Positions 55,280 through 64,000 of a DNA stretch of 64,000 nt are shown here, in pieces. The DNA lies in assembly GCA_937872925.1 (NCBI GenBank), contig CALMUT010000027.1:6763-70762 (forward strand). The letters run 5' to 3'. The stretch is from an uncultured Myxococcales bacterium (GTDB lineage: Bacteria > Myxococcota_A > Polyangia > Polyangiales > Polyangiaceae). The notes below the pieces were generated by a model, which was given only the letters and a program-made list of their open reading frames with translations, made no database searches and had not been told where the DNA came from. How positions within the stretch are numbered: the first letter of the stretch is position 1; each line of letters opens with the position of its first letter. Position numbers and translations under genes: made by a program.

Positions 55280-56050
55280 ATGGATGAAGATTCGATCAAA
55301 CGGCTGTTGGCTCGTGTGCAAGCGGGCGAGCTGGACGTTGGCAAAGCAGTTGCCGAATTGCGTAGTTTGCCCTTCGCGGACTTGGGGTACGCCCGCGTGG
55401 ATCACCACCGCGCACTGCGCCAGGGGTTGCCCGAGGTGGTGTTGGGGGAGGGGAAGCAGACGGAACACATCATCGGGATCGCCGAACGACTCATCGAGTC
55501 CGGTCAAAACGTATTGATCACGCGCGTTGCTCCGGCGGTTGCGGAAGCGGTGCGAGAGCGCGTGCCGGCGCTGCAGTTTGCGGCGGTGGCCCGAGTGCTC
55601 AGCTTCGAGCACGCCCCAGTGGTCCCAAAGCAGATGCGCCCAGTCGCGGTGGTTACCGCGGGCACTAGTGACTTGCCGGTTGCAGAAGAGGCCACCGAGA
55701 CTTTGCGCATGGCGGGAGTGCCCTTTGAGCGCTTGGTGGATGTTGGCGTTGCGGGGATCCACCGTTTGTTCAGCGGTCTCGACTCCCTTTCAACAGCGCC
55801 AGCGGTGATCGTCGTCGCCGGAATGGAAGGAGCACTGCCAAGCGTGGTCGGCGGCTTGATTGCGGGTCCCGTGATCGCCGTCCCGACGTCCATTGGTTAC
55901 GGCACGGCGCTCGGTGGCTTCGCAGCTCTATTCGGCATGCTCACGGGCTGCGCCGCAGGAGTCACGGTGGTGAATATCGACAACGGCTTTGGTGCCGCGA
56001 TGGCCGTGGTGCGCTACGTCCGGGCATTGGAGATGGCGAGCCAAGCATGA
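55280..56050 (+). CDS. larB: nickel-pincer cofactor biosynthesis protein LarB (PurE-like carboxylase/hydrolase)
   Basis: VDHHRALRQGLPEVVLGEGK, VVTAGTSDLPVAEEA, VVAGMEGALPSVVGGL, VNIDNGFGAA. Confidence 0.8.
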   Translation: MDEDSIKRLLARVQAGELDVGKAVAELRSLPFADLGYARVDHHRALRQGLPEVVLGEGKQTEHIIGIAERLIESGQNVLITRVAPAVAEAVRERVPALQFAAVARVLSFEHAPVVPKQMRPVAVVTAGTSDLPVAEEATETLRMAGVPFERLVDVGVAGIHRLFSGLDSLSTAPAVIVVAGMEGALPSVVGGLIAGPVIAVPTSIGYGTALGGFAALFGMLTGCAAGVTVVNIDNGFGAAMAVVRYVRALEMASQA

Positions 56051-57405
56051 CGAAGTCGTCCGACGGCGGTCATGCCCACGGCGGTCATGCCCACGGGGGG
56101 CATGCCCACGGCGGCCCTGCCCCCCGCGGCCATGCCCACGGCGGCCATGCCCACGGTGACGACGCCAAGGCCCCCGCCCCAGCGCCGCGCCCGGAACTGA
56201 GCGCAGGCTCGGGCCGGGGCAAATGGATCCATTTTGACGCCCCCAGCGGGATCGCGGGCGATATGACCGTGGCTGCGCTCCTGGATCTGGGGGTCCCGCT
56301 ATCGGTGGTTGAAGCTGCCGTCGCCGCCGTTGGTATCCCCGGAGTGAGTGTGCAGGCTCAAGGCGTGTTTCGTGGTGCCATCGCAGCCACGTCCTTCGTG
56401 GTGCATCCGACCCCCGAAGATCGCGAGCGGACCCTCGGGGAAATTCTTGCCTTGCTGGATGCTTCGGGACTCGAAGCTGGGGTTCGCGATCTTTCCAAGC
56501 GCATCTTCATGCGACTCGGTCGTGCCGAGGCAAAGGTGCATCGCATCGCCCTGATGGACGTCGCGTTCCACGAAGTCGGTGCTGTGGACGCGATCGTGGA
56601 CATCGTGGGTGCCGCGGCCTGCATTGACTATCTGGGTGCAGAGATTTCAGCGTCGCCCTTGCCGGTGGGCCGCGGGTTCGTCGAGTGCCGTCATGGGATC
56701 CTGCCCCTGCCTGCGCCGGCGACCCTGGAGTGCCTGACCGGCGTGCCGACCTACGACGGTGGCATTGACGCCGAACTTGTTACGCCGACGGGCGCTGCCA
56801 TCATCTCAACAGTAGCTCGTGAGTTTTGCCGCTTTCCAAGCTGGACGCCGGAGGCGATTGGCTGGGGAGCTGGCACCCGAAAGCTCGCCGACCGCCCGAA
56901 CGCTCTGCGTGCGATCCTGGGATTTCGCGGCACGGAGCCTCACGTGAACCCGGGAACACACGCGGTGCTTGAGGCGAATATGGACGACGCCACTGGCGAG
57001 GTCATTGGCCATGCCGTTGAAGTCTTGCTCGCGGCTGGCGCACTCGACGTGTGGATCAATTCTGTGACCATGAAGAAGGGGCGCCCAGGTTTGGTTCTGC
57101 ACGCGCTGGCGCCTTTCGAGGAGGCAGAATCCGTTGCCGCCACGATGCTTCGGGAAACCCCCAGCATCGGTGTGCGTTGGAGTGCCTATTCCCGCTTGGA
57201 ACGGCCCCGCCGGCAGATCCAGGTCACGACGCCATTCGGGGACGTGCCCGTAAAGGTCAGTTCGGGTCCTTTCGGGCCCGCCGAGATCAAACCTGAGTTC
57301 GATCGCTGCGCCGAACTCGCAGCAGCCTCAGGGGTTCCGGTACGCAGCGTGATCCAAAGCGCATTCGATGCTGCCATTGCTGCCGTGGGTGCGGACTCGG
57401 ATTAG
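56047..57405 (+). CDS. larC: nickel insertion protein LarC (DUF111) with N-terminal His-rich repeat
   Basis: FDAPSGIAGDMTVAALLDLGVP, FHEVGAVDAIVDIVG, MKKGRPG. Overlaps larB by 4 nt. Confidence 0.85.
   Translation: MTKSSDGGHAHGGHAHGGHAHGGPAPRGHAHGGHAHGDDAKAPAPAPRPELSAGSGRGKWIHFDAPSGIAGDMTVAALLDLGVPLSVVEAAVAAVGIPGVSVQAQGVFRGAIAATSFVVHPTPEDRERTLGEILALLDASGLEAGVRDLSKRIFMRLGRAEAKVHRIALMDVAFHEVGAVDAIVDIVGAAACIDYLGAEISASPLPVGRGFVECRHGILPLPAPATLECLTGVPTYDGGIDAELVTPTGAAIISTVAREFCRFPSWTPEAIGWGAGTRKLADRPNALRAILGFRGTEPHVNPGTHAVLEANMDDATGEVIGHAVEVLLAAGALDVWINSVTMKKGRPGLVLHALAPFEEAESVAATMLRETPSIGVRWSAYSRLERPRRQIQVTTPFGDVPVKVSSGPFGPAEIKPEFDRCAELAAASGVPVRSVIQSAFDAAIAAVGADSD
56071..56160 (+). repeat. six tandem 15-nt units (one degenerate) encoding HAHGG repeats
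   Basis: catgcccacggcggt-type unit at 56071, 56086, 56101, (56116 degenerate), 56131 and 56146. It encodes GGHAHGGHAHGGHAHGG...GHAHGGHAHG. Confidence 0.9.
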
Positions 57406-58061
57406 TCCGGGCGGTCAACGGGTAGCCCTGCGGCTTCCCAGGACAGGACTCCGCCTTCTAGGAACGATACGGGCACGCCTTGGGTGGCGAGTTCTGCTGC
57501 GAGATCTTTGGTTCGGTCACCCGCACGGCAATAGACGACCGGCGAGCCGGGCAGCATGTGCAGCTCTGCGAGCCGGGTCGGAACCTCCGTCAACGGGATG
57601 TTGATGGCACTCGGAAGGTGCGCTCGGGCAAAAACCTCTTTGTCACGGGTATCCACGAGGCTGATCTGTTGCCGCGTCAGCAAGACTGCGACTTCCTCGG
57701 CCTTGAGTGCTCCCTGGGCGCGCGGCAGGTACGGCTCTAGAAGCTGGCGTAACTCCATCCGCTTGAGCGCACCGACGCGCCCACCGACGGGACGCCCCTG
57801 GTGAAACACAGCGAAGGTCGGCACCGACTGTACCCCGAGCTCGCGCGCGAGCATCGGAGAGCGGTCGATATCCACCTGCACGATCTTGGCCTTGCCCGAC
57901 AGATCTTCGGAAAGCGCTGCGAGTTCCGGCGCAACGGTCTTGCACGGGGCACACCACTCTGCGCCGAACTCCACGAGCACGGGTAGCTCGCTCATCAGGA
58001 CTTCTTGTTCGAAATTTTTCTCTGAGACCGGGATTACCGCCATGGACTTGCTCCAATGCAT
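57402..58061 (-). CDS. thioredoxin-rhodanese fusion protein
   Basis: N-terminal VLVEFGAEWCAPCK (WCxPC thioredoxin site). C-terminal rhodanese with VVYCRAGDRT active-site loop. Its stop codon overlaps the convergent larC stop. Confidence 0.85.
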   Translation of the reverse strand: MHWSKSMAVIPVSEKNFEQEVLMSELPVLVEFGAEWCAPCKTVAPELAALSEDLSGKAKIVQVDIDRSPMLARELGVQSVPTFAVFHQGRPVGGRVGALKRMELRQLLEPYLPRAQGALKAEEVAVLLTRQQISLVDTRDKEVFARAHLPSAINIPLTEVPTRLAELHMLPGSPVVYCRAGDRTKDLAAELATQGVPVSFLEGGVLSWEAAGLPVDRPD

Positions 58062-58088
58062 GCGTATAGCGCGAACGTCGCCGTTTCG

Positions 58089-58850
58089 TCACCCGCGTCG
58101 ACTTGCCATGCGGAGATCCGGGCGTAGTGGGTCACTGGACTCCACGCTCGATTCTGCAACGGTGCATAGCGCCCAAGTGACGGTCACCAGGGCAATACCC
58201 GCCAGCAGCGCCGCGCCCGCAGGGCTGGGCTGGGCTGGGCTCAAGGCCGTCCCCCAAGATACCCAGGCCGATGGCTCCCGCAAGCCGACGAAGGAGGTCA
58301 TGGCCTCAATTCCGATCGCGTACGCCGCGGTCAACGAAACATTGACGGCGACTGGTCGCAGGCAGTGCGGCAGGACGTGGCGGAGAAGCGTGCGGGACGA
58401 TGACGCGCCCAGCGCCCGCGCGGCAAGGACGAAATCTTGGCAGGCCAGGCGGTGGATCTCTCCGCGTACGACCCGAGCCAGTTCGACTGCCCTGAGCAGA
58501 CCGAGGCAAACCCCAAGGGAGACCAGGGTGCCGCCGGCGGTCCAGCTGGCGACCACGCCGGCGAAGATGATGATGGGCAGCGTGCTGGTTACTTCCACTG
58601 CCCGGGCAAGCAGCGCATCCGCGCGCCGTCCGTACCAACCTGCCATGGCGCCAACGATCAGACCGATCGGGAGCGCGGTGAGCACAGTGAGCGCGGCCAA
58701 CCAAACCGCTGTGCGGGTTCCCGACAGCGTGATGCCCACAGCGCCAACCGCCTCGGTGCCCATGACTGCAGCGCCGCCGGCGATCCCGACGAAGGCCAGC
58801 AGTATCGCAGCCGCAACGCGGGTTCGGAGTGACCACGAGCGCCGCGTCAT
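58089..58850 (-). CDS. ABC transporter permease, DppC/OppC-like
   Basis: Six-TM BPD-transport-type protein. Overlaps the upstream permease gene by 4 nt. Confidence 0.7.
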   Translation of the reverse strand: MTRRSWSLRTRVAAAILLAFVGIAGGAAVMGTEAVGAVGITLSGTRTAVWLAALTVLTALPIGLIVGAMAGWYGRRADALLARAVEVTSTLPIIIFAGVVASWTAGGTLVSLGVCLGLLRAVELARVVRGEIHRLACQDFVLAARALGASSSRTLLRHVLPHCLRPVAVNVSLTAAYAIGIEAMTSFVGLREPSAWVSWGTALSPAQPSPAGAALLAGIALVTVTWALCTVAESSVESSDPLRPDLRMASRRG

Positions 58851-60307
58851 TGCTGCACCGCTTCTTCACCCGCATCGCGCAACCGTGGGTCCAATCGAGC
58901 CAGCGCTAGGTCGCTCGTTATCTGCAGCAGTGCTGCGAAAGCCATGATTCCCAGGCCGACGGCCATGAGCCAGGTCGTGTCGCCCACGCGGACCGCCTCA
59001 ATCGTGACGGAGCCGAGGCCGTCCAAGGACAGGGCGTGTTCCACCACGAAGGCAAGCGAGAGCAGCGTCGGCATGTCCCGTCCGAGCAGTGAAAGCAGGG
59101 CACTGCTCGCGTTTCGGCTGGACAGCCGCGCGACGGAAAGCTCCGAGTGGCCAAAAGCGCGGCGGGTGCGCGCCGCGTCTTGGGCCAGTTCGTTGCGTAG
59201 GGAAAGCCGTTGGTAGCGCAGCAACAAGGCCGACGTGGCCAGCGTCATCACGAGTAGTCCGACGCAGAACCGCAAGGACTCAGTTGCGTGGGCCGCACCT
59301 CCGGCGAACACGGCGCAAGGCAGCGCGACTACCATCAACGCGCCCGGGGAGAAGTAGCGATCCACTCGCGCATTCGCGGCGACTGCCATCGCGGCAAGGA
59401 AAGCACCCGCGTAACCGAAGAGAATCGCGAGCCAGGCGAGGGCGAGGGTCAGGGGCGCGCGACTTGCGAGCACGTCGAGGACGGACTGCCCACGGCTATT
59501 GGCGCCCAGGCGGGCGTACACGGCGTTCTCAGCCCATCGCCCGAACTCGGTTTCGGTCAGCATCGCCAAGACCCGTTCCGGGCCGTCCAGCGCCACATAG
59601 TCCAAGCGATGCTCCCGCCACCATTGACGCCACACCAAGCGCAGCGAACGCGCCTCGTCCAAGCTGGCGTCGGGTTTGATGGTCCAGGGCTGGCCGGTGA
59701 TATGAGCCAGCAGGGGCGTCACCCGCGCCATTTGTTCCACGTGTTCTTGAGCTCGAATGTTCGGCAGCGCGGCGATGAGTTCCGCCAGCGCGTACGTGTC
59801 GAGGCCGATCACGTCGTCGCGTCTTCCTTCGCTGGCACGCTGCGCGATGCGGCGCACCGCACGTTTTGCCACTCCAGGACGGAAGTCGATGGAGCGATCT
59901 TGCCAAAAGCGGTTCCAGAAGAGGACTGCCGTTTCCGGGTGTTTGAGTTCTTCGCGGGAGCCGAGGCCGATCCGGTATGCGATCGGTGTCAGGGCGAGGG
60001 CGACCCGAGCCCGTTGGTTCGGTGGCAGGGCATCGAGCTCTGGCAGCACATGCGGCAACGCCGCCCCGCCGATTTTCTCGAGCCTCCGCGCCGCGGCGTC
60101 TGCATCCGGTCCCCCCGCTGCGATCCGGGCAGTCAGCGCTTGGGTGGTCTGGCGCACGGAGACCGGGTCAGGTTGAAAAAAACGCGGTAGTGGCGCTCGC
60201 CCCTGCGTCGGGTGGTGTTTTCCGTGGGAGAGAAAGGCAAACAAGAGCGCTGACATCAGCACGAGGGTCGGGCCGATCCACAGGACGCGCCTGAGGGCAT
60301 GCCGCAT
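58847..60307 (-). CDS. ABC transporter permease, DppB/OppB-like, with ~250-aa insertion after TM1
   Basis: N-terminal RRVLWIGPTLVLMSALLFAFL and C-terminal VVEHALSLDGLGSVTIEAV...LARLDPRLR match the DppB-type ends. Long helical (HEAT-like) insert between TM1 and TM2. Confidence 0.65.
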   Translation of the reverse strand: MRHALRRVLWIGPTLVLMSALLFAFLSHGKHHPTQGRAPLPRFFQPDPVSVRQTTQALTARIAAGGPDADAAARRLEKIGGAALPHVLPELDALPPNQRARVALALTPIAYRIGLGSREELKHPETAVLFWNRFWQDRSIDFRPGVAKRAVRRIAQRASEGRRDDVIGLDTYALAELIAALPNIRAQEHVEQMARVTPLLAHITGQPWTIKPDASLDEARSLRLVWRQWWREHRLDYVALDGPERVLAMLTETEFGRWAENAVYARLGANSRGQSVLDVLASRAPLTLALAWLAILFGYAGAFLAAMAVAANARVDRYFSPGALMVVALPCAVFAGGAAHATESLRFCVGLLVMTLATSALLLRYQRLSLRNELAQDAARTRRAFGHSELSVARLSSRNASSALLSLLGRDMPTLLSLAFVVEHALSLDGLGSVTIEAVRVGDTTWLMAVGLGIMAFAALLQITSDLALARLDPRLRDAGEEAVQQ

Positions 60308-60311
60308 CAGC

Positions 60312-61559
60312 TCAACGCAGAAACACGAAGCCTGTAACCGCGACCACGAGCAGCACGCCTAGCACTGTGAGTCCGACGACATGGGGCGGCCATCCGGTGG
60401 TCGGGATGTCCACGGGCTCGTCGTCCTGCGCGAATACCGGCGGCGGTGTGGAGGGTACGGCACGGCCTCGGTTGGCGTCAGCATCTTCCGCTGCGTCGTC
60501 TAGGACGGGGCTCGTCATGCCCATCATCGTGTGTCCGACGCGAAGCGAACGGGACTCCCGAGCGGCCTCGTCGCTCATATCTGGCGTGAGCACATCATGG
60601 GTCTGCACGGCCTGGGCGCGCATGGTGGAGTCGGCTGACGCGGCTTCGGAAAGCGCGTACTTCTTGTACGTGAGGGTGTCGTCGGCGGTCGCTTCGGGCA
60701 GGCTATCGCCTTCGAAGCGCGCGACGATCACGGTGATGTTGTCATGGCCCCCCGCGAGATTCGCTCGCTCGGTCAGCACTTTGCACGCCTCAAGAGGATC
60801 CGAGACCGAGACCAAGACTTCGCGAATTTCGTCTGCCCGGATCATTCCGGAGAGCCCGTCCGAGCACACCAGCAGGGTGTCGCCCTGCCTGAGTTCCACA
60901 TGTGTCAGATCGACCTGGACCGTATCGGCCGTGCCCAGCGCCTGCAGGATGATGTTGTTGTGCTCGAAGGTCTCGGCCTCTTCCTCGGTCAGCTGCCCGG
61001 CTTCGATCAACTGGTTTACCAGGGACTGGTCGCGGGTGACCTGTACGAGCTTTTCCCCGCGAAGGATGTACGCTCGACTGTCGCCCACTTGAGCGAGGAA
61101 TAAGGTCTGATCCAGAAGTGCCGCAACCGTCGCGGTCGTTCCCATGCCGCGCCGGGTACGGTCGGCGCGCGCTTCGTTGAAGATGCGTACGCCCGCGTCC
61201 TCGACGGCACGCACCAGGCGCCGCGCGAGATCATCCCGCTCAAGGGGGGGCTCCCCCTCCGTGAGACGCTCATAGATGATGTCGACGGCGAGTTGGCTTG
61301 CGACTTCGCCAGCAGCCGCGCCGCCCATGCCGTCGCAAACGCCCAGCGCCGTTCCGCGGCGACCGACCGTCTGCATGCGGTCGCCTTCCATGAGGCTCCG
61401 GGATTTCCGGGACAAGTCCGCAACGAGGAAGTTGTCTTCGTTGTGTTCTCGGATCTGTCCGACATCGGTCCGACCAAATACGAGCATGCGAATTCCGGCC
61501 TCTGCGGATTCAGCAGTCCCGTTGGGGTCGGCGGAGTCGTCCTTTTCGTCGTCGCTCAT
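60312..61559 (-). CDS. PP2C-family Ser/Thr phosphatase with C-terminal TM anchor
   Basis: GRTDVGQIREHNEDNF, CDGMGGAAAGEVAS, GTTATVA, VGDSRAY, CSDGLSGMI, GGHDNITVIV. C-terminal VVGLTVLGVLLVVAVTGFVFL. Confidence 0.9.
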   Translation of the reverse strand: MSDDEKDDSADPNGTAESAEAGIRMLVFGRTDVGQIREHNEDNFLVADLSRKSRSLMEGDRMQTVGRRGTALGVCDGMGGAAAGEVASQLAVDIIYERLTEGEPPLERDDLARRLVRAVEDAGVRIFNEARADRTRRGMGTTATVAALLDQTLFLAQVGDSRAYILRGEKLVQVTRDQSLVNQLIEAGQLTEEEAETFEHNNIILQALGTADTVQVDLTHVELRQGDTLLVCSDGLSGMIRADEIREVLVSVSDPLEACKVLTERANLAGGHDNITVIVARFEGDSLPEATADDTLTYKKYALSEAASADSTMRAQAVQTHDVLTPDMSDEAARESRSLRVGHTMMGMTSPVLDDAAEDADANRGRAVPSTPPPVFAQDDEPVDIPTTGWPPHVVGLTVLGVLLVVAVTGFVFLR

Positions 61560-61560
61560 T

Positions 61561-62842
61561 TCACACTCGAGCGCCCGGTTGGAGTTCTATCCGGAACAGA
61601 TGTTGCCCGATTCGCACGTGGTCCCCATCCTCTAGAGCACGCTCTTGGCGCAGTGCCAAGAAGGTCCCGTTGGAAGAGCCCAAATCCCGCAGTGAAAAGC
61701 TCGCGCTCTCCACGTTCCGAGTAATGCTTGCGTGGCGGCGGCTCATGAAAGGGTCTGCTGTAAACACGATGTCACCGTTTTCCCGGCCGATGACGGTTTC
61801 CTCGCGGCAGACGTAGTAGATATCACGTCCGACGCCCTCAACGGTGTGCTGCCGTAGCCGTGCGAAGCGAGGAGTCGCCGGGGACCCAAAAACGTGGGTT
61901 CCCTGATCAACGGCCGGCCCGAAGCCCTTCTCGGCGTCGTTCACGACCTCGAACCTTAACACCTCCAGGCCTACTAACACCAAGTCCCCATGCTCCAGGG
62001 CCGCCGGCCCGCGGAGCCGAAGGTAGACGCCGTTGGTCGACCCCAAATCTCGCAGATAATAGCGGCCATTTCTGGCGGTGATGCGCGCGTGCAGAGGAGA
62101 GACGTAGGGGTCGTTGGGCAGCTGGATCTGGCCGCCCTCGCGCCCGATGTCTGACTGGTCGGCGGCCAAGGCGTATTCTCGGCCCGGCGAGCCGTCCTGA
62201 GCAATGACCACCAAGCGGGCGGCGGGGGCGGCCTGGGGCGGGGGGGCGCAGCGCCCGGTGACTTGCGGACGCCCTTTCCGCAACCTCGCGTTCCGGACGA
62301 TGCACTTCGGGCACCGGGTTGTGCGCCGGAGCAGGCGCGGGGGCTGCCACCGCGGGTCCACCTGCTCGGCCGCCACCCGTTTCGGGCTGGGCGGGATCAC
62401 CCAGGCGCGCGCCGCAGTATTGGCAATAAGCCATATGCGGTTCGTTCTTGCCCCGACACCGGCCGCATACGATGTCCGTCTGGGCCGGTTGGGGGGCCGC
62501 GACGCCGACCACGGGTGCGCCCGCCACTGCTGCGGCGCCGCCGCCCGCGTCCGCGGCGCCCACCGCCACACCGCATTCCGCGCAGAAGCGCGCTTCGCTT
62601 GGATTCTGCGCCCCGCACCGCGTGCACGAGATCTCTTGGTCCGCGGGCTTTGGCGCAAAGTTGAAAGCGGGTGCTTGTGGGCGCGGACGCGGCGCATCAC
62701 CGCCCGCGTCCGCTACCAATGCGCGCGGTGGAGTCGCGACGGCGGCGGGCGCCGGCGCCTGCAGCCGATTGCCGCAGTCCTGGCAGAACCTCAGGTCCCC
62801 GGGGTTGTCCCGGCCGCAACGGTCACACTTCACGGAGCGCAA
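61561..62842 (-). pseudogene. triple zinc-ribbon + double FHA domain protein, reading frame interrupted (two track ORFs 61907-62842 and 61561-62700)
   Basis: Frame 1 from ATG 62842: CDRCGRDNPGDLRFCQDCG, CTRCGAQNPSEARFCAECG, CGRCRGKNEPHMAYCQYCG. Frame 2, ending at 61561: two FHA units (IGREGGQIQLPNDPYVSPLHARI...LRDLGSTNGVYL; IGRENGDIVFTADPFMSRRHASI...LRDLGSSNGTFL). A +1 shift is needed to join them. This could be a sequencing error, so the gene may be intact. Confidence 0.7.
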
Positions 62843-62879
62843 GAGGACCGCGCACGGCGAACCGAGTCAAGAGCAGTAT

Positions 62880-63539
62880 TTACCAGCGCGGCAGCGGGTC
62901 CCGGACCTCCAGGATCAGCTCCAGAAACGCCCCGTGAGCCATTCCGAAGCCAAGATAGCCGTCCGCCCTTCGCTGGCCGGCCGAATCTGTCCAACCCCGG
63001 AAGAAAAACGGCCGATATCCCGCTGCGACGCCAACCACGGCGGTTCGGCTGAGCTGGAGCTCCAAGCCGGCCCCCAGGGCAGCTGTCATTCCGCCGCTAT
63101 CTGCCCCCCATTCGCTGCCGTACAGGGCGGCCCCGACTGCGAAGGCGCCGTAGGGAGTGACCCGGGAGCCCTGATCCAGGTAGTAGCGGCTTTCGGCCCG
63201 CAACTGTTGGAGGATCGCCAGCCGCAGCAGGTTGGAGGACTCGTGCCGCGAGGCTTCGTACGCTCCCCCCACGTACCAACTGCCCCGCGCCCGGTAGCCC
63301 ACACGCACGCCGAGCCCGCCGCCAGAGCCGAAAATGCATGGCGCAACGGCTCCTTCGGGGCAGATGTTTCCGGCCGACGCGACGGTTTCGGCAGCGAACG
63401 CGACGCCGTACTGCAAATAGTCGAAACTGGATGAGGGGGGGGTCGCCGTTGCGTGGTCGCCGTCGGCGGCATTTGCCGGGTTGGCTCCCATGCCGATTGA
63501 CGCCGCCAGGGCTACCGCCGCGGTTCTCACGAAGCGCAC
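62880..63539 (-). CDS. outer-membrane beta-barrel protein
   Basis: Signal peptide MRFVRTAAVALAASIGMGANPANA. Gly/Tyr-rich alternating strands and a C-terminal aromatic residue (...PRW). Confidence 0.6.
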   Translation of the reverse strand: MRFVRTAAVALAASIGMGANPANAADGDHATATPPSSSFDYLQYGVAFAAETVASAGNICPEGAVAPCIFGSGGGLGVRVGYRARGSWYVGGAYEASRHESSNLLRLAILQQLRAESRYYLDQGSRVTPYGAFAVGAALYGSEWGADSGGMTAALGAGLELQLSRTAVVGVAAGYRPFFFRGWTDSAGQRRADGYLGFGMAHGAFLELILEVRDPLPRW

Positions 63540-63664
63540 CGTACTCTAACTATCCGACGAGCGCCCTCGTGCAGCGCCGTTTTCGGCGCAAAGGAGTCTG
63601 CCGGCGATCCTTGCCCGGATCCCGCTCAAATCCGGGGCCGGCACTGCGTCAGACGACGCCGGGC

Positions 63665-63692
63665 TTGACGGGGCGAACGCCATTCGTTTAAT
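63665..63692 (+). promoter_or_regulatory. candidate sigma-70-type promoter
   Basis: TTGACG (63665-63670), 16-nt spacer, TTTAAT (63687-63692), ~30 nt upstream of ATG 63722. Confidence 0.3.
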
Positions 63693-63721
63693 GGCGGTGC
63701 AAAACAAGGGCAAGAACTTCG

Positions 63722-64000
63722 ATGGACATTCACTTAGACCGGCGCGCCGTGCGCCACATCCGCCTTTCCGCTCAAGAGGCCGTCGATGAGGGGGACACCG
63801 AGTCGCTACGCGAGGACATTCTTGAAGCGTTCACCGAGGACCAGGTCGAGGAAATCGAGCGTCGCCTGGACAACGGCGATTTCTTCGAGTTCCTGACGGA
63901 CATCATCGACGAATGGGCAGGGGACGACGTCGACGAGTTGTTCGAACTGCTCGAAACACAACTCGGAGAAGTCGGGATCGATCTGAAGACCGATCAAAAA
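63722..64000 (+). CDS. acidic hypothetical protein, N-terminal fragment (runs off the window)
   Basis: Own translation: MDIHLDRRAVRHIRLSAQEAVDEGDTESLREDILEAFTEDQVEEIERRLDNGDFFEFLTDIIDEWAGDDVDELFELLETQLGEVGIDLKTDQK, open to the window end. The track ORF 63806-63997 on the minus strand is its shadow. Confidence 0.5.
   Translation, partial: MDIHLDRRAVRHIRLSAQEAVDEGDTESLREDILEAFTEDQVEEIERRLDNGDFFEFLTDIIDEWAGDDVDELFELLETQLGEVGIDLKTDQK

Follow-up and report, generated by a model that had tools for sequence, protein, structure and literature searches.

What might a pair of importer-type permeases be doing in an operon that also encodes a putative reader and a putative eraser of phospho-threonine, at a locus with no transport ATPase to drive them? 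The question is raised by a six-gene unit in a 64,000-nucleotide stretch of contig CALMUT010000027.1 from an uncultured Myxococcales bacterium (hereafter, the window). In gene order, the unit encodes a small protein resembling an outer-membrane protein (OMP), a protein with three zinc ribbons followed by two FHA domains (the Zn-ribbon/FHA protein), a PP2C phosphatase, an OppB/DppB-like membrane protein (PermB), its OppC/DppC-like partner (PermC) and a thioredoxin-rhodanese fusion. We propose, giving the proposal about an even chance, that the unit is a Ser/Thr signalling operon specific to Polyangia, whose membrane partner is an Opp/Dpp-derived PermB-PermC heterodimer, and that the constrained part of this pair is a new periplasmic helical domain carried by PermB.

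The descent of the two permeases is readily recognized, in spite of their divergence. Both exceed the Pfam cut-off for BPD_transp_1 (26.4 bits), PermC with 82.9 bits (3.2e-23) and PermB with 40.9 bits over residues 303-477 only. An AlphaFold2 model of PermB (predicted local distance difference test, pLDDT, 87.8) found its best Foldseek matches, via the membrane core, in the OppB/DppB proteins of M. tuberculosis and E. coli (E 5e-7 to 4e-4), with M. tuberculosis OppB (8j5q_B) at 5e-7 and the permease chains of E. coli DppBCDF and OppBCDF also matched. We conclude that the two proteins share the BPD_transp_1 fold of the Opp/Dpp/Nik (PepT) type I importer permeases. Neither reached any of the NCBIfam equivalog cut-offs for OppB/C, DppB/C, NikB/C, GsiC/D or SapB/C (59.7 against 450 for PermB, 116.5 against 350 for PermC); the weak matches included nickel permease models (Opp2B, Opp1B, NikB/NikC), which scored no better than the peptide models. 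A Polyangiaceae metagenome-assembled genome (MAG) encodes a protein with 100 % identity to the window permease, the named relatives of which are all Polyangia (Polyangiaceae, Sorangium, Chondromyces, Minicystis, Polyangium, Labilithrix, Byssovorax).

To place the pair in its genomic context, 80 genome loci were fetched and searched with the window proteins, and counts were made over the 65 loci that include 4.5 kb or more of upstream sequence. The genes for the FHA protein, PP2C, PermB and PermC are contiguous in 33 of these, including Chondromyces apiculatus, with the OMP gene present in 28. In five loci (Sorangium, Minicystis and three of Polyangium) an insertion of 2.6-3.0 kb separates PP2C from PermB, and in the remaining 27, from Labilithrix and many MAGs, PermB-PermC stands without OMP, FHA or PP2C genes within 10 kb, as for example in L082, which has the permease pair alone beside a DNA ligase gene. 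An earlier note on this DNA, made from the window alone, had described a single six-gene unit and proposed that its recurrence be looked for in other genomes. The gene order does recur in many Polyangia genomes, intact in C. apiculatus and others and with the insertion in Sorangium, Polyangium and Minicystis, which rules out a strain-specific arrangement; the unit is not indivisible, as the 27 stand-alone pairs attest. Of 69 loci, 45 have the thioredoxin-rhodanese gene directly after PermC, nine have it at another place in the locus and 15 lack it.

Within the contiguous loci, the tight packing of the genes is conserved too. In the window, the six minus-strand ORFs (open reading frames) are separated by 37, 1, 4, -4 and 27 nt, the PermC start overlapping the PermB stop by 4 nt, so that the tightly packed, co-directional arrangement and spacings previously described are borne out by the ORF coordinates. 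The 4-nt PermB/PermC overlap recurs even though PermB identity drops to 35-40 %, and most of the 33 contiguous loci have about 3-18 nt between PP2C and PermB. No terminator-like site, which the earlier note would have counted against a single transcript, was found between the genes; the seven weak sites detected (4.7 +/- 2.1 expected) all fall inside coding sequence. Most database entries for the thioredoxin-rhodanese begin six codons later, at the second Met (213 residues, MAVIPV...; window 58043-58061), so that the true distance from PermC could be 45 nt instead of 27 nt. That the six genes are co-transcribed and translationally coupled is part of our proposal and stands at the same even level as the whole.

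Five additional loci (L083-L087), reached via PP2C homologues and via long insert-bearing proteins, display more drastic changes of the permeases in the same setting. L083-L085 keep the operon, with a PermB of 415-417 residues that retains the large N-terminal insert described below (41 % identity) and has a core of about three C-terminal transmembrane (TM) helices with no BPD_transp_1 signal. In L086 (4959-7172) and L087 (3198-5384), a PermB::PermC fusion of 728-737 residues (P0142 and P0134) directly follows PP2C; its permease motifs are strongly eroded, and the context from PP2C to thioredoxin-rhodanese is the same. In Sorangium sp. So ce1099 (L078, 7331-9981), the insertion between PP2C and PermB encodes a TM-trypsin-like protease and an FHA-TM-trypsin-like protease on the same strand. 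Insertions of similar size are seen in L055, L068, L077 and L081 (Polyangium x3, Minicystis), gene content being annotated for L078 only. In Labilithrix luteola (L062, 12497-16042), a phosphoenolpyruvate (PEP) carboxylase gene lies between PermC and the thioredoxin-rhodanese.

What, then, could energize the pair? Searches for an ATPase and a binding protein covered the permease loci and their neighbours. The window contains no ORF with both a Walker A motif and an ABC (ATP-binding cassette) signature, and none that matches three ABC-domain queries. Of 81 loci scanned, eight have ABC domains within 10 kb, none of them in a co-oriented gene adjoining the permeases, and no ABC gene was called in L082-L087. 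The lack of an ABC ATPase claimed earlier thus extends from the window to 87 related loci, in none of which is such a gene paired with the permeases, and an ordinary Dpp/Opp locus with its ATPase just outside is ruled out by the window and the plus or minus 10 kb around the pair in these 87 loci. The claimed lack of a binding protein fared likewise: there is no SBP_bac_5 or family-5 binding protein among the annotated genes of the nine loci with Pfam gene calls, including L001 (a close relative of the window introduced below) and L082-L087. In the Labilithrix clade, a gene for an ABC-F-type double ATPase lies directly upstream of the stand-alone PermB-PermC (L062 8286-9929, L047 8144-9808, L048 3894-5477). 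It was considered as the missing ATPase and discarded: Pfam marks the L062 protein as ABC-F (ABC_tran plus ABC_tran_Xtn), its gene is divergent, and it is confined to that clade, where the ABC genes adjacent to the pair are its orthologues.

The loop by which the permeases of such importers couple to their ATPases, marked by the EAA motif, differs between the locus types. In the EAA alignment, 28 of 28 stand-alone pairs carry the canonical Opp/Dpp PermB motif (QDYVRTARAKG..RV.VVHALRNALxPxVTLAGL), and in the five insertion-type loci the PermB loop is near canonical. In most PermB proteins of contiguous operons the EAA motif is lost and the loop is one residue shorter and often Ser-rich; that of the window reads QDAARTRRAFGHSELSVARLSSRNASSALLSLLG, with HALRNALxP lost, and in L083-L085 the region is absent. 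The A384/G386 core of the PermB loop is conserved. PermC changes less than PermB, and its loop in the window is near canonical (QDFVLAARALGASSSRTLLRHVLPH). As judged from these alignments, the PermB coupling loop is eroded in operon-linked members, and because it is the ATPase-coupling loop that is eroded, the evidence points away from classical transport. The Ser-rich motif that replaces HALRNALxP in operon-linked PermB is approximately FR[AS]SS (window 59090-59200, residues ~370-405); its serines could be phosphorylation sites.

Outside the loop, parts of PermB are well conserved. In a 24-sequence alignment, P413, E423, G430, G432, D443, W446 and a DPR motif of PermB are invariant, and because these C-terminal motifs remain invariant, the permease core has not decayed as a whole in the window's own clade. 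As many as 31 of the 43 invariant PermB residues, moreover, fall within residues 1-258, that is, largely within an insert between the first and second TM helices (TM1 and TM2). An insert of some 250 residues had been noticed before; it measures 232 residues (~41-272), and by this alignment it is the best-conserved, constrained part of PermB. Modelled alone, it is all-helical (pLDDT 90.2, predicted template-modelling score 0.84). No fold match was found for it in the PDB (best Foldseek E 0.26, TM-score <=0.25); neither the full-length nor the insert-only model pointed to a known fold, the noise-level matches being alpha-solenoid-like. Searched by itself against 1.84 billion protein representatives, the insert gave 294 matches. 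In all 150 matches listed, wherever that end of the protein is present, the insert lies near the N-terminus of a permease-like protein, mostly of 450-530 residues, with about 16 of 700-738 residues; a doubled insert was ruled out as the explanation for these long proteins, the one compared (P0142) being a PermB::PermC fusion. Among 132 insert-bearing representatives, 130 have an insert of constant length. A hidden Markov model of the membrane core, by comparison, matched 101 of the 132 over its full length, 14 partially and 17 not at all. Because the N-terminus of PermB (MRHALRRVLWIGPTL...) resembles, as we assume, those of OppB and DppB, the insert should be periplasmic by analogy with their topology.

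The other members of the operon evolve more slowly than the permeases. Median identity to the window in the contiguous loci is 40 % and 39 % for the two permeases, the fastest-evolving proteins of the set, against 48 % for the FHA protein, 59 % for the OMP, 67 % for PP2C and 68.5 % for the thioredoxin-rhodanese. The Zn-ribbon/FHA protein matches Pfam DZR (5.6e-14) and, twice, FHA (2.4e-28, 98.8 bits), and its top NCBIfam match is FhaB/FipA. The conserved FHA positions G-R, S-x-x-H and N-G are readable in both domains, so that the protein carries the conserved phospho-threonine-binding residues and is predicted to bind such sites. Membership in the TagH/Fha-PpkA-PppA system of type VI secretion was rejected, the FHA protein scoring 57.5 against a cut-off of 120.25 for TIGR03354; type VI secretion genes were also not found among the annotated neighbours in L001 and L083-L085. 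PP2C scores above the NCBIfam cut-off for NF033484 (Stp1/IreP; 234.8 against 230 bits) and has all of the motifs REHNEDN, DGMGG, GDSR and GGHDN, from which it is predicted to be catalytically intact. It ends in a hydrophobic C-terminal stretch, with essentially nothing past the TM helix. Its homologues form more than 120 clusters at least 68 % identical to it, a lower limit in that the search was filled by close Polyangia relatives; as the same applies to the thioredoxin-rhodanese, the spread of both is reported within Polyangia.

In one respect the window is not representative. The Zn-ribbon/FHA gene, previously taken as intact, is not a single ORF here: its 1282-nt span is divided between two frames, 61907-62842 with the zinc ribbons and 61561-62700 with both FHA domains, by an insertion of one base near 62270. 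The metagenome contig L001, which is 99.85 % identical over 12.7 kb, does not have this extra G and encodes an intact protein of 423 residues. The gene is also intact in L002, which is 95 % identical, and L084 has an intact ORF of 434 residues with three ribbons. The frameshift (+1) sits in the Pro/Ala-rich linker between the third zinc ribbon and the first FHA domain, and is either an assembly error or a strain-specific mutation. A G/A difference beside the extra G (window 62255-62285) changes Tyr to Cys relative to L001.

A reader and an eraser would call for a writer, and the earlier note had reported no kinase in or next to the operon. Inside the window this holds, the window ending 460 nt upstream of the OMP gene; further upstream it does not. 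In L001, a Pkinase protein of 411 residues with a TM helix near residues 305-328 is encoded on the same strand about 5 kb upstream, and an orthologue of this conserved membrane Hanks kinase is found upstream in 20 of the 33 contiguous loci; it is the likely candidate writer. In L001 (506-6315), the kinase gene belongs to a conserved same-strand group with genes for a 232-residue protein of no assigned family, an FGE-sulfatase protein, a SpoU methylase, a Beta_elim_lyase protein and a YbgF/CpoB-like TPR protein; L083-L085 have their kinase, FGE, SpoU and TPR genes in close succession. Together with the operon these genes form a longer syntenic block of about 17 kb, in the order kinase, FGE-sulfatase, SpoU, Beta_elim_lyase, TPR, a small divergent ORF, the operon, and then LarC, LarB (both on the opposite strand) and PmbA. 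Because this longer block, with its unrelated genes, is syntenic as well, synteny alone is weak evidence for function. The informative facts, as far as sequence comparison goes, are the conserved translational coupling and the PP2C-PermB link that survives insertion, truncation and fusion.

On the basis of these data, the proposed signalling operon could work as follows. The upstream Hanks kinase would make phospho-threonine sites, for which PermB, PermC, the linker in PP2C and the kinase itself are possible targets; the Zn-ribbon/FHA protein, as a cytoplasmic reader, would bind these sites; and the tail-anchored Stp1-type PP2C, as the eraser, would reset them. PermB-PermC would then be a sensor or scaffold, or else a regulated target or effector of the Ser/Thr module, rather than the core of a binding-protein-dependent ABC importer. 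Its periplasmic side would display the 232-residue helical domain, its ATPase-docking loop would be under relaxed or altered constraint in the operon-linked lineages, and the FHA protein and PP2C would be expected to contact the pair physically. The small OMP and the thioredoxin-rhodanese, products of the first and last genes, would be co-expressed accessories. A trans-envelope transport or sulfur-relay module, which the earlier note suggested, finds neither support nor contradiction in these data.

Several observations weigh against this scheme. The FHA domains require phospho-threonine, and no conserved Thr target was identified. The link of the FHA protein and PP2C to PermB-PermC is drawn from gene context and sequence, and the FHA gene is frameshifted in the window itself. 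Loop erosion and operon linkage may go together because of one event in a single lineage. The synteny of 17 kb, which includes unrelated genes such as SpoU, the threonine-aldolase-like gene, LarB/LarC and PmbA, inflates the apparent conservation. Because 27 of 65 loci have the permeases without the signalling genes, the pair can, by this distribution, work alone. Finally, the kept PermC loop and the C-terminal motifs of PermB fit a working translocation core that could use ATPases encoded elsewhere.

This last point leads to an explanation that we consider possible but doubtful, namely that PermB-PermC is a genuine Opp/Dpp/Nik importer core that relies on ATPases, and possibly a binding protein, encoded at other loci and is regulated by phosphorylation through the FHA protein, PP2C and the kinase. 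The OppB/DppB fold and the two scores above the BPD_transp_1 gathering threshold agree with it, as do the near-canonical loop of PermC and the conservation of A384/G386 and the C-terminal motifs in PermB. Furthermore, the stand-alone relatives with canonical loops equally lack adjacent ATPases, and trans-encoded ATPases therefore seem ancestral in the family. Rv1747 offers a precedent for the regulation of a transporter through FHA domains (PMC8339232). Against such an importer stand the degenerate PermB loop in most operon-linked members and the core that is truncated or unrecognisable in some. The scores lie far under all Opp/Dpp/Nik equivalog cut-offs, and the pair has neither an ABC ATPase beside it in the 87 loci nor a binding protein annotated in the nine Pfam-called ones. 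In the OppABCD and DppABCDF structures, the TM1-TM2 loop contacts the binding protein, and it is in this loop that PermB has its large insert.

A more radical version of the signalling proposal, held just as tentatively as the importer, is that an ABC-importer pair was exapted in Polyangia: having lost its ATPase and binding protein and gained the periplasmic helical domain, it would have become a transmembrane receptor or scaffold, and its cytoplasmic side, with the loops that once docked the ATPases, would engage the FHA protein and the tail-anchored PP2C.

It is improbable, in our estimate, that the genes are neighbours for historical reasons, as co-transcribed but functionally unrelated housekeeping genes in a strongly syntenic region. 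This would account for the extension of the block to the SpoU methylase, Beta_elim_lyase, TPR, LarC/LarB and PmbA genes, for the 27 of 65 loci that separate the permease pair from FHA/PP2C, and for the PEP carboxylase gene between PermC and the thioredoxin-rhodanese in Labilithrix. Against it are overlapping or near-abutting stop and start codons that persist across deep divergence, a PP2C link that survives PermB truncation, fusion and insertion (in Sorangium together with another FHA-domain gene), and the change of the PermB coupling loop that coincides with PP2C linkage. Least of all do we expect the permeases and the thioredoxin-rhodanese to be sources of nickel and sulfur for the neighbouring LarB/LarC pathway, which makes the nickel-pincer cofactor: the convergence of LarC (Ni_insertion) and LarB (AIRC) on the thioredoxin-rhodanese gene in many contiguous, truncated-core and fusion loci and in Sorangium, the His-rich N-terminus of LarC and the nickel models among the weak NCBIfam matches are outweighed by Lar genes on the opposite strand, nickel scores no better than peptide scores and all far under cut-off, many stand-alone permease loci without nearby Lar genes, no ATPase or binding protein at the locus, and LarE and LarA that were not seen, though no search was aimed at them. 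Chance or an annotation artefact is ruled out, all six ORFs having orthologues and domain support, and nothing points to horizontal transfer, the GC content being even across the region (0.62-0.71).

The features of the unit and its boundaries are collected in Table 1. Five of the six domain assignments made previously were confirmed by Pfam, NCBIfam or structure prediction, and the sixth, the OMP barrel, is supported through orthologues only. The window OMP protein itself has no Pfam or NCBIfam match, and no sequence relative of it was found in the PDB; 18 of its 29 orthologues match PF13505 (OMP_b-brl) weakly, at best with 1e-6. An alignment of the protein with all 29 displays a shared signal peptide and strand-like alternation, with Cys residues C60 and C68 invariant among the orthologues, and it is plausible, resting on these orthologues, that the first gene encodes an outer-membrane barrel. 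The thioredoxin-rhodanese matches Pfam Thioredoxin (7e-26) and Rhodanese (9e-14), and its WCxPC redox motif (WCAPC) and CX4R active-site loop (CRAGDR) identify it as a predicted sulfurtransferase. Among the matches listed its relatives are 67-100 % identical and, where named, belong to Polyangiaceae or Myxococcales.

Table 1. Features of the six-gene unit and its boundaries (window coordinates)
Feature	Position	Strand	Basis
OMP-like gene, 219 aa; secreted, probably a small outer-membrane beta-barrel	62880..63539	-	Signal-peptide-like N-terminus, strand-like alternation, orthologues' PF13505 matches
Zn-ribbon/FHA gene, three Zn ribbons and two FHA domains; predicted cytoplasmic phospho-threonine reader	61561..62842	-	DZR, FHA x2; frameshifted in window
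PP2C, predicted Stp1/IreP-type Ser/Thr phosphatase, 415 aa; C-terminal tail anchor	60312..61559	-	NCBIfam NF033484, PP2C motifs
PermB, OppB/DppB-like membrane protein, 486 aa; degenerate EAA loop	58847..60307	-	BPD_transp_1, AlphaFold2 model, Foldseek
PermB insert, 232 aa; all-helical, family-specific, TM1-TM2	59492..60187	-	Invariant residues, model, insert search
PermC, OppC/DppC-like partner, 253 aa; EAA loop largely kept	58089..58850	-	BPD_transp_1
Thioredoxin-rhodanese fusion, 219 aa; cytoplasmic, last gene of unit	57402..58061	-	Pfam, WCAPC and CRAGDR motifs
Divergent intergenic region, ~180 nt; presumed promoter region of unit	63540..63720	.	Window sequence
Small acidic ORF, divergent; upstream boundary, not a member of unit	63721..64000 (start)	+	Window sequence
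LarC (Ni_insertion), convergent; downstream boundary, not a member of unit	56047..57405	+	ORF listing

At the upstream boundary, no sigma-70-like match was found in the intergenic region. The small acidic ORF beyond it has no family match in an NCBIfam search; in relatives it measures 128-134 residues and occupies the same place and orientation, between the TPR and OMP genes, in L001 and L083-L086. At the downstream boundary, the convergent LarC gene overlaps the stop codon of the thioredoxin-rhodanese gene by 4 nt. The His-rich N-terminus of LarC consists of repeated G-G-H-A-H units (window 56081-56140, + strand), presumably metal-binding; the repeat tract is length-polymorphic, being 15 nt longer in the window than in L001, with two substitutions in addition.

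Bacterial modules of FHA, PP2C and Hanks-kinase proteins are known mainly from Actinobacteria, Firmicutes, type VI secretion and Myxococcus development, and to our knowledge their membrane partners have rarely been identified. The present operon, conserved throughout a class of soil bacteria that have large genomes and produce metabolites, joins a module of this kind to a membrane complex derived from a transporter, in which transporter features are lost by degrees, from a canonical loop to an eroded loop to a truncated core or a fusion, with the insert domain kept throughout. Should the pair serve in signalling and not in transport, it would clearly exemplify the re-use of an ABC permease in the absence of its motor, and the five or six genes of the operon, present in the cultivable Sorangium and Chondromyces, would offer an entry point into Ser/Thr signalling in Polyangia; the receptor or scaffold reading, if true, would make it a novel sort of device for Ser/Thr signalling from envelope to cytoplasm. 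If, alternatively, it is a transporter with borrowed ATPases, it would still be unusual, as a phospho-regulated importer that carries a periplasmic domain of its own.

Literature searches found no published description of the operon, of the PermB family or of ATPase-less permease pairs, in line with the earlier statement that the architecture matches no described system, and for rhodanese and thioredoxin they returned general papers only. The building blocks all come from known families, and the control of membrane proteins by FHA and PP2C is already an established theme; the graded loss of ABC features and an insert without a PDB fold match are more than routine. Individual components can be compared with several known systems. 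The thioredoxin-rhodanese shares the CX4R loop and the WCxPC motif with GlpE/PspE-type rhodaneses and thioredoxin, here fused in a predicted enzyme encoded by the last gene of a signalling and permease operon. MalF P2, which docks MalE, is likewise a large periplasmic insertion in a membrane subunit of a type I importer; it lies between other helices. The PermB insert is all-helical and has no fold match in the PDB and no known binding protein. E. coli DppBCDF, M. tuberculosis OppABCD and other Opp/Dpp/Nik importers share the BPD_transp_1 fold and the PermC EAA loop, and differ from the pair described here in its want of a locus-encoded ATPase and binding protein, its 232-residue insert, its degenerate PermB loop and the truncations and fusions of some lineages. 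In Rv1747, an exporter with its own ATPase domain, phospho-threonine signalling through FHA domains is likewise attached to an ABC-type membrane transporter. This M. tuberculosis protein, a PknF-regulated substrate, carries its two FHA domains within the transporter (PMC8339232), whereas in the present operon the FHA domains belong to a protein of their own, and the permeases, of importer type, lack an ATPase.

The closest known arrangement comes from Actinobacteria, where fhaA and fhaB lie beside pstP, itself co-transcribed with rodA and pbpA (PMC6554272). In this fhaA-fhaB-pstP-rodA-pbpA-pknA-pknB cluster (M. tuberculosis Rv0014c-Rv0020c), as in Polyangia, an FHA reader is encoded beside a membrane PP2C and two membrane proteins, with Hanks kinases nearby. 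In the Polyangia (Myxococcota) operon, the genes downstream of the phosphatase are BPD_transp_1 permease-like, in place of a SEDS protein (RodA) and a class B penicillin-binding protein; the kinase gene sits in another gene group upstream; PP2C has a tail anchor, its sequence ending essentially with the TM helix; the FHA protein bears three zinc ribbons; and an OMP and a thioredoxin-rhodanese have been added.

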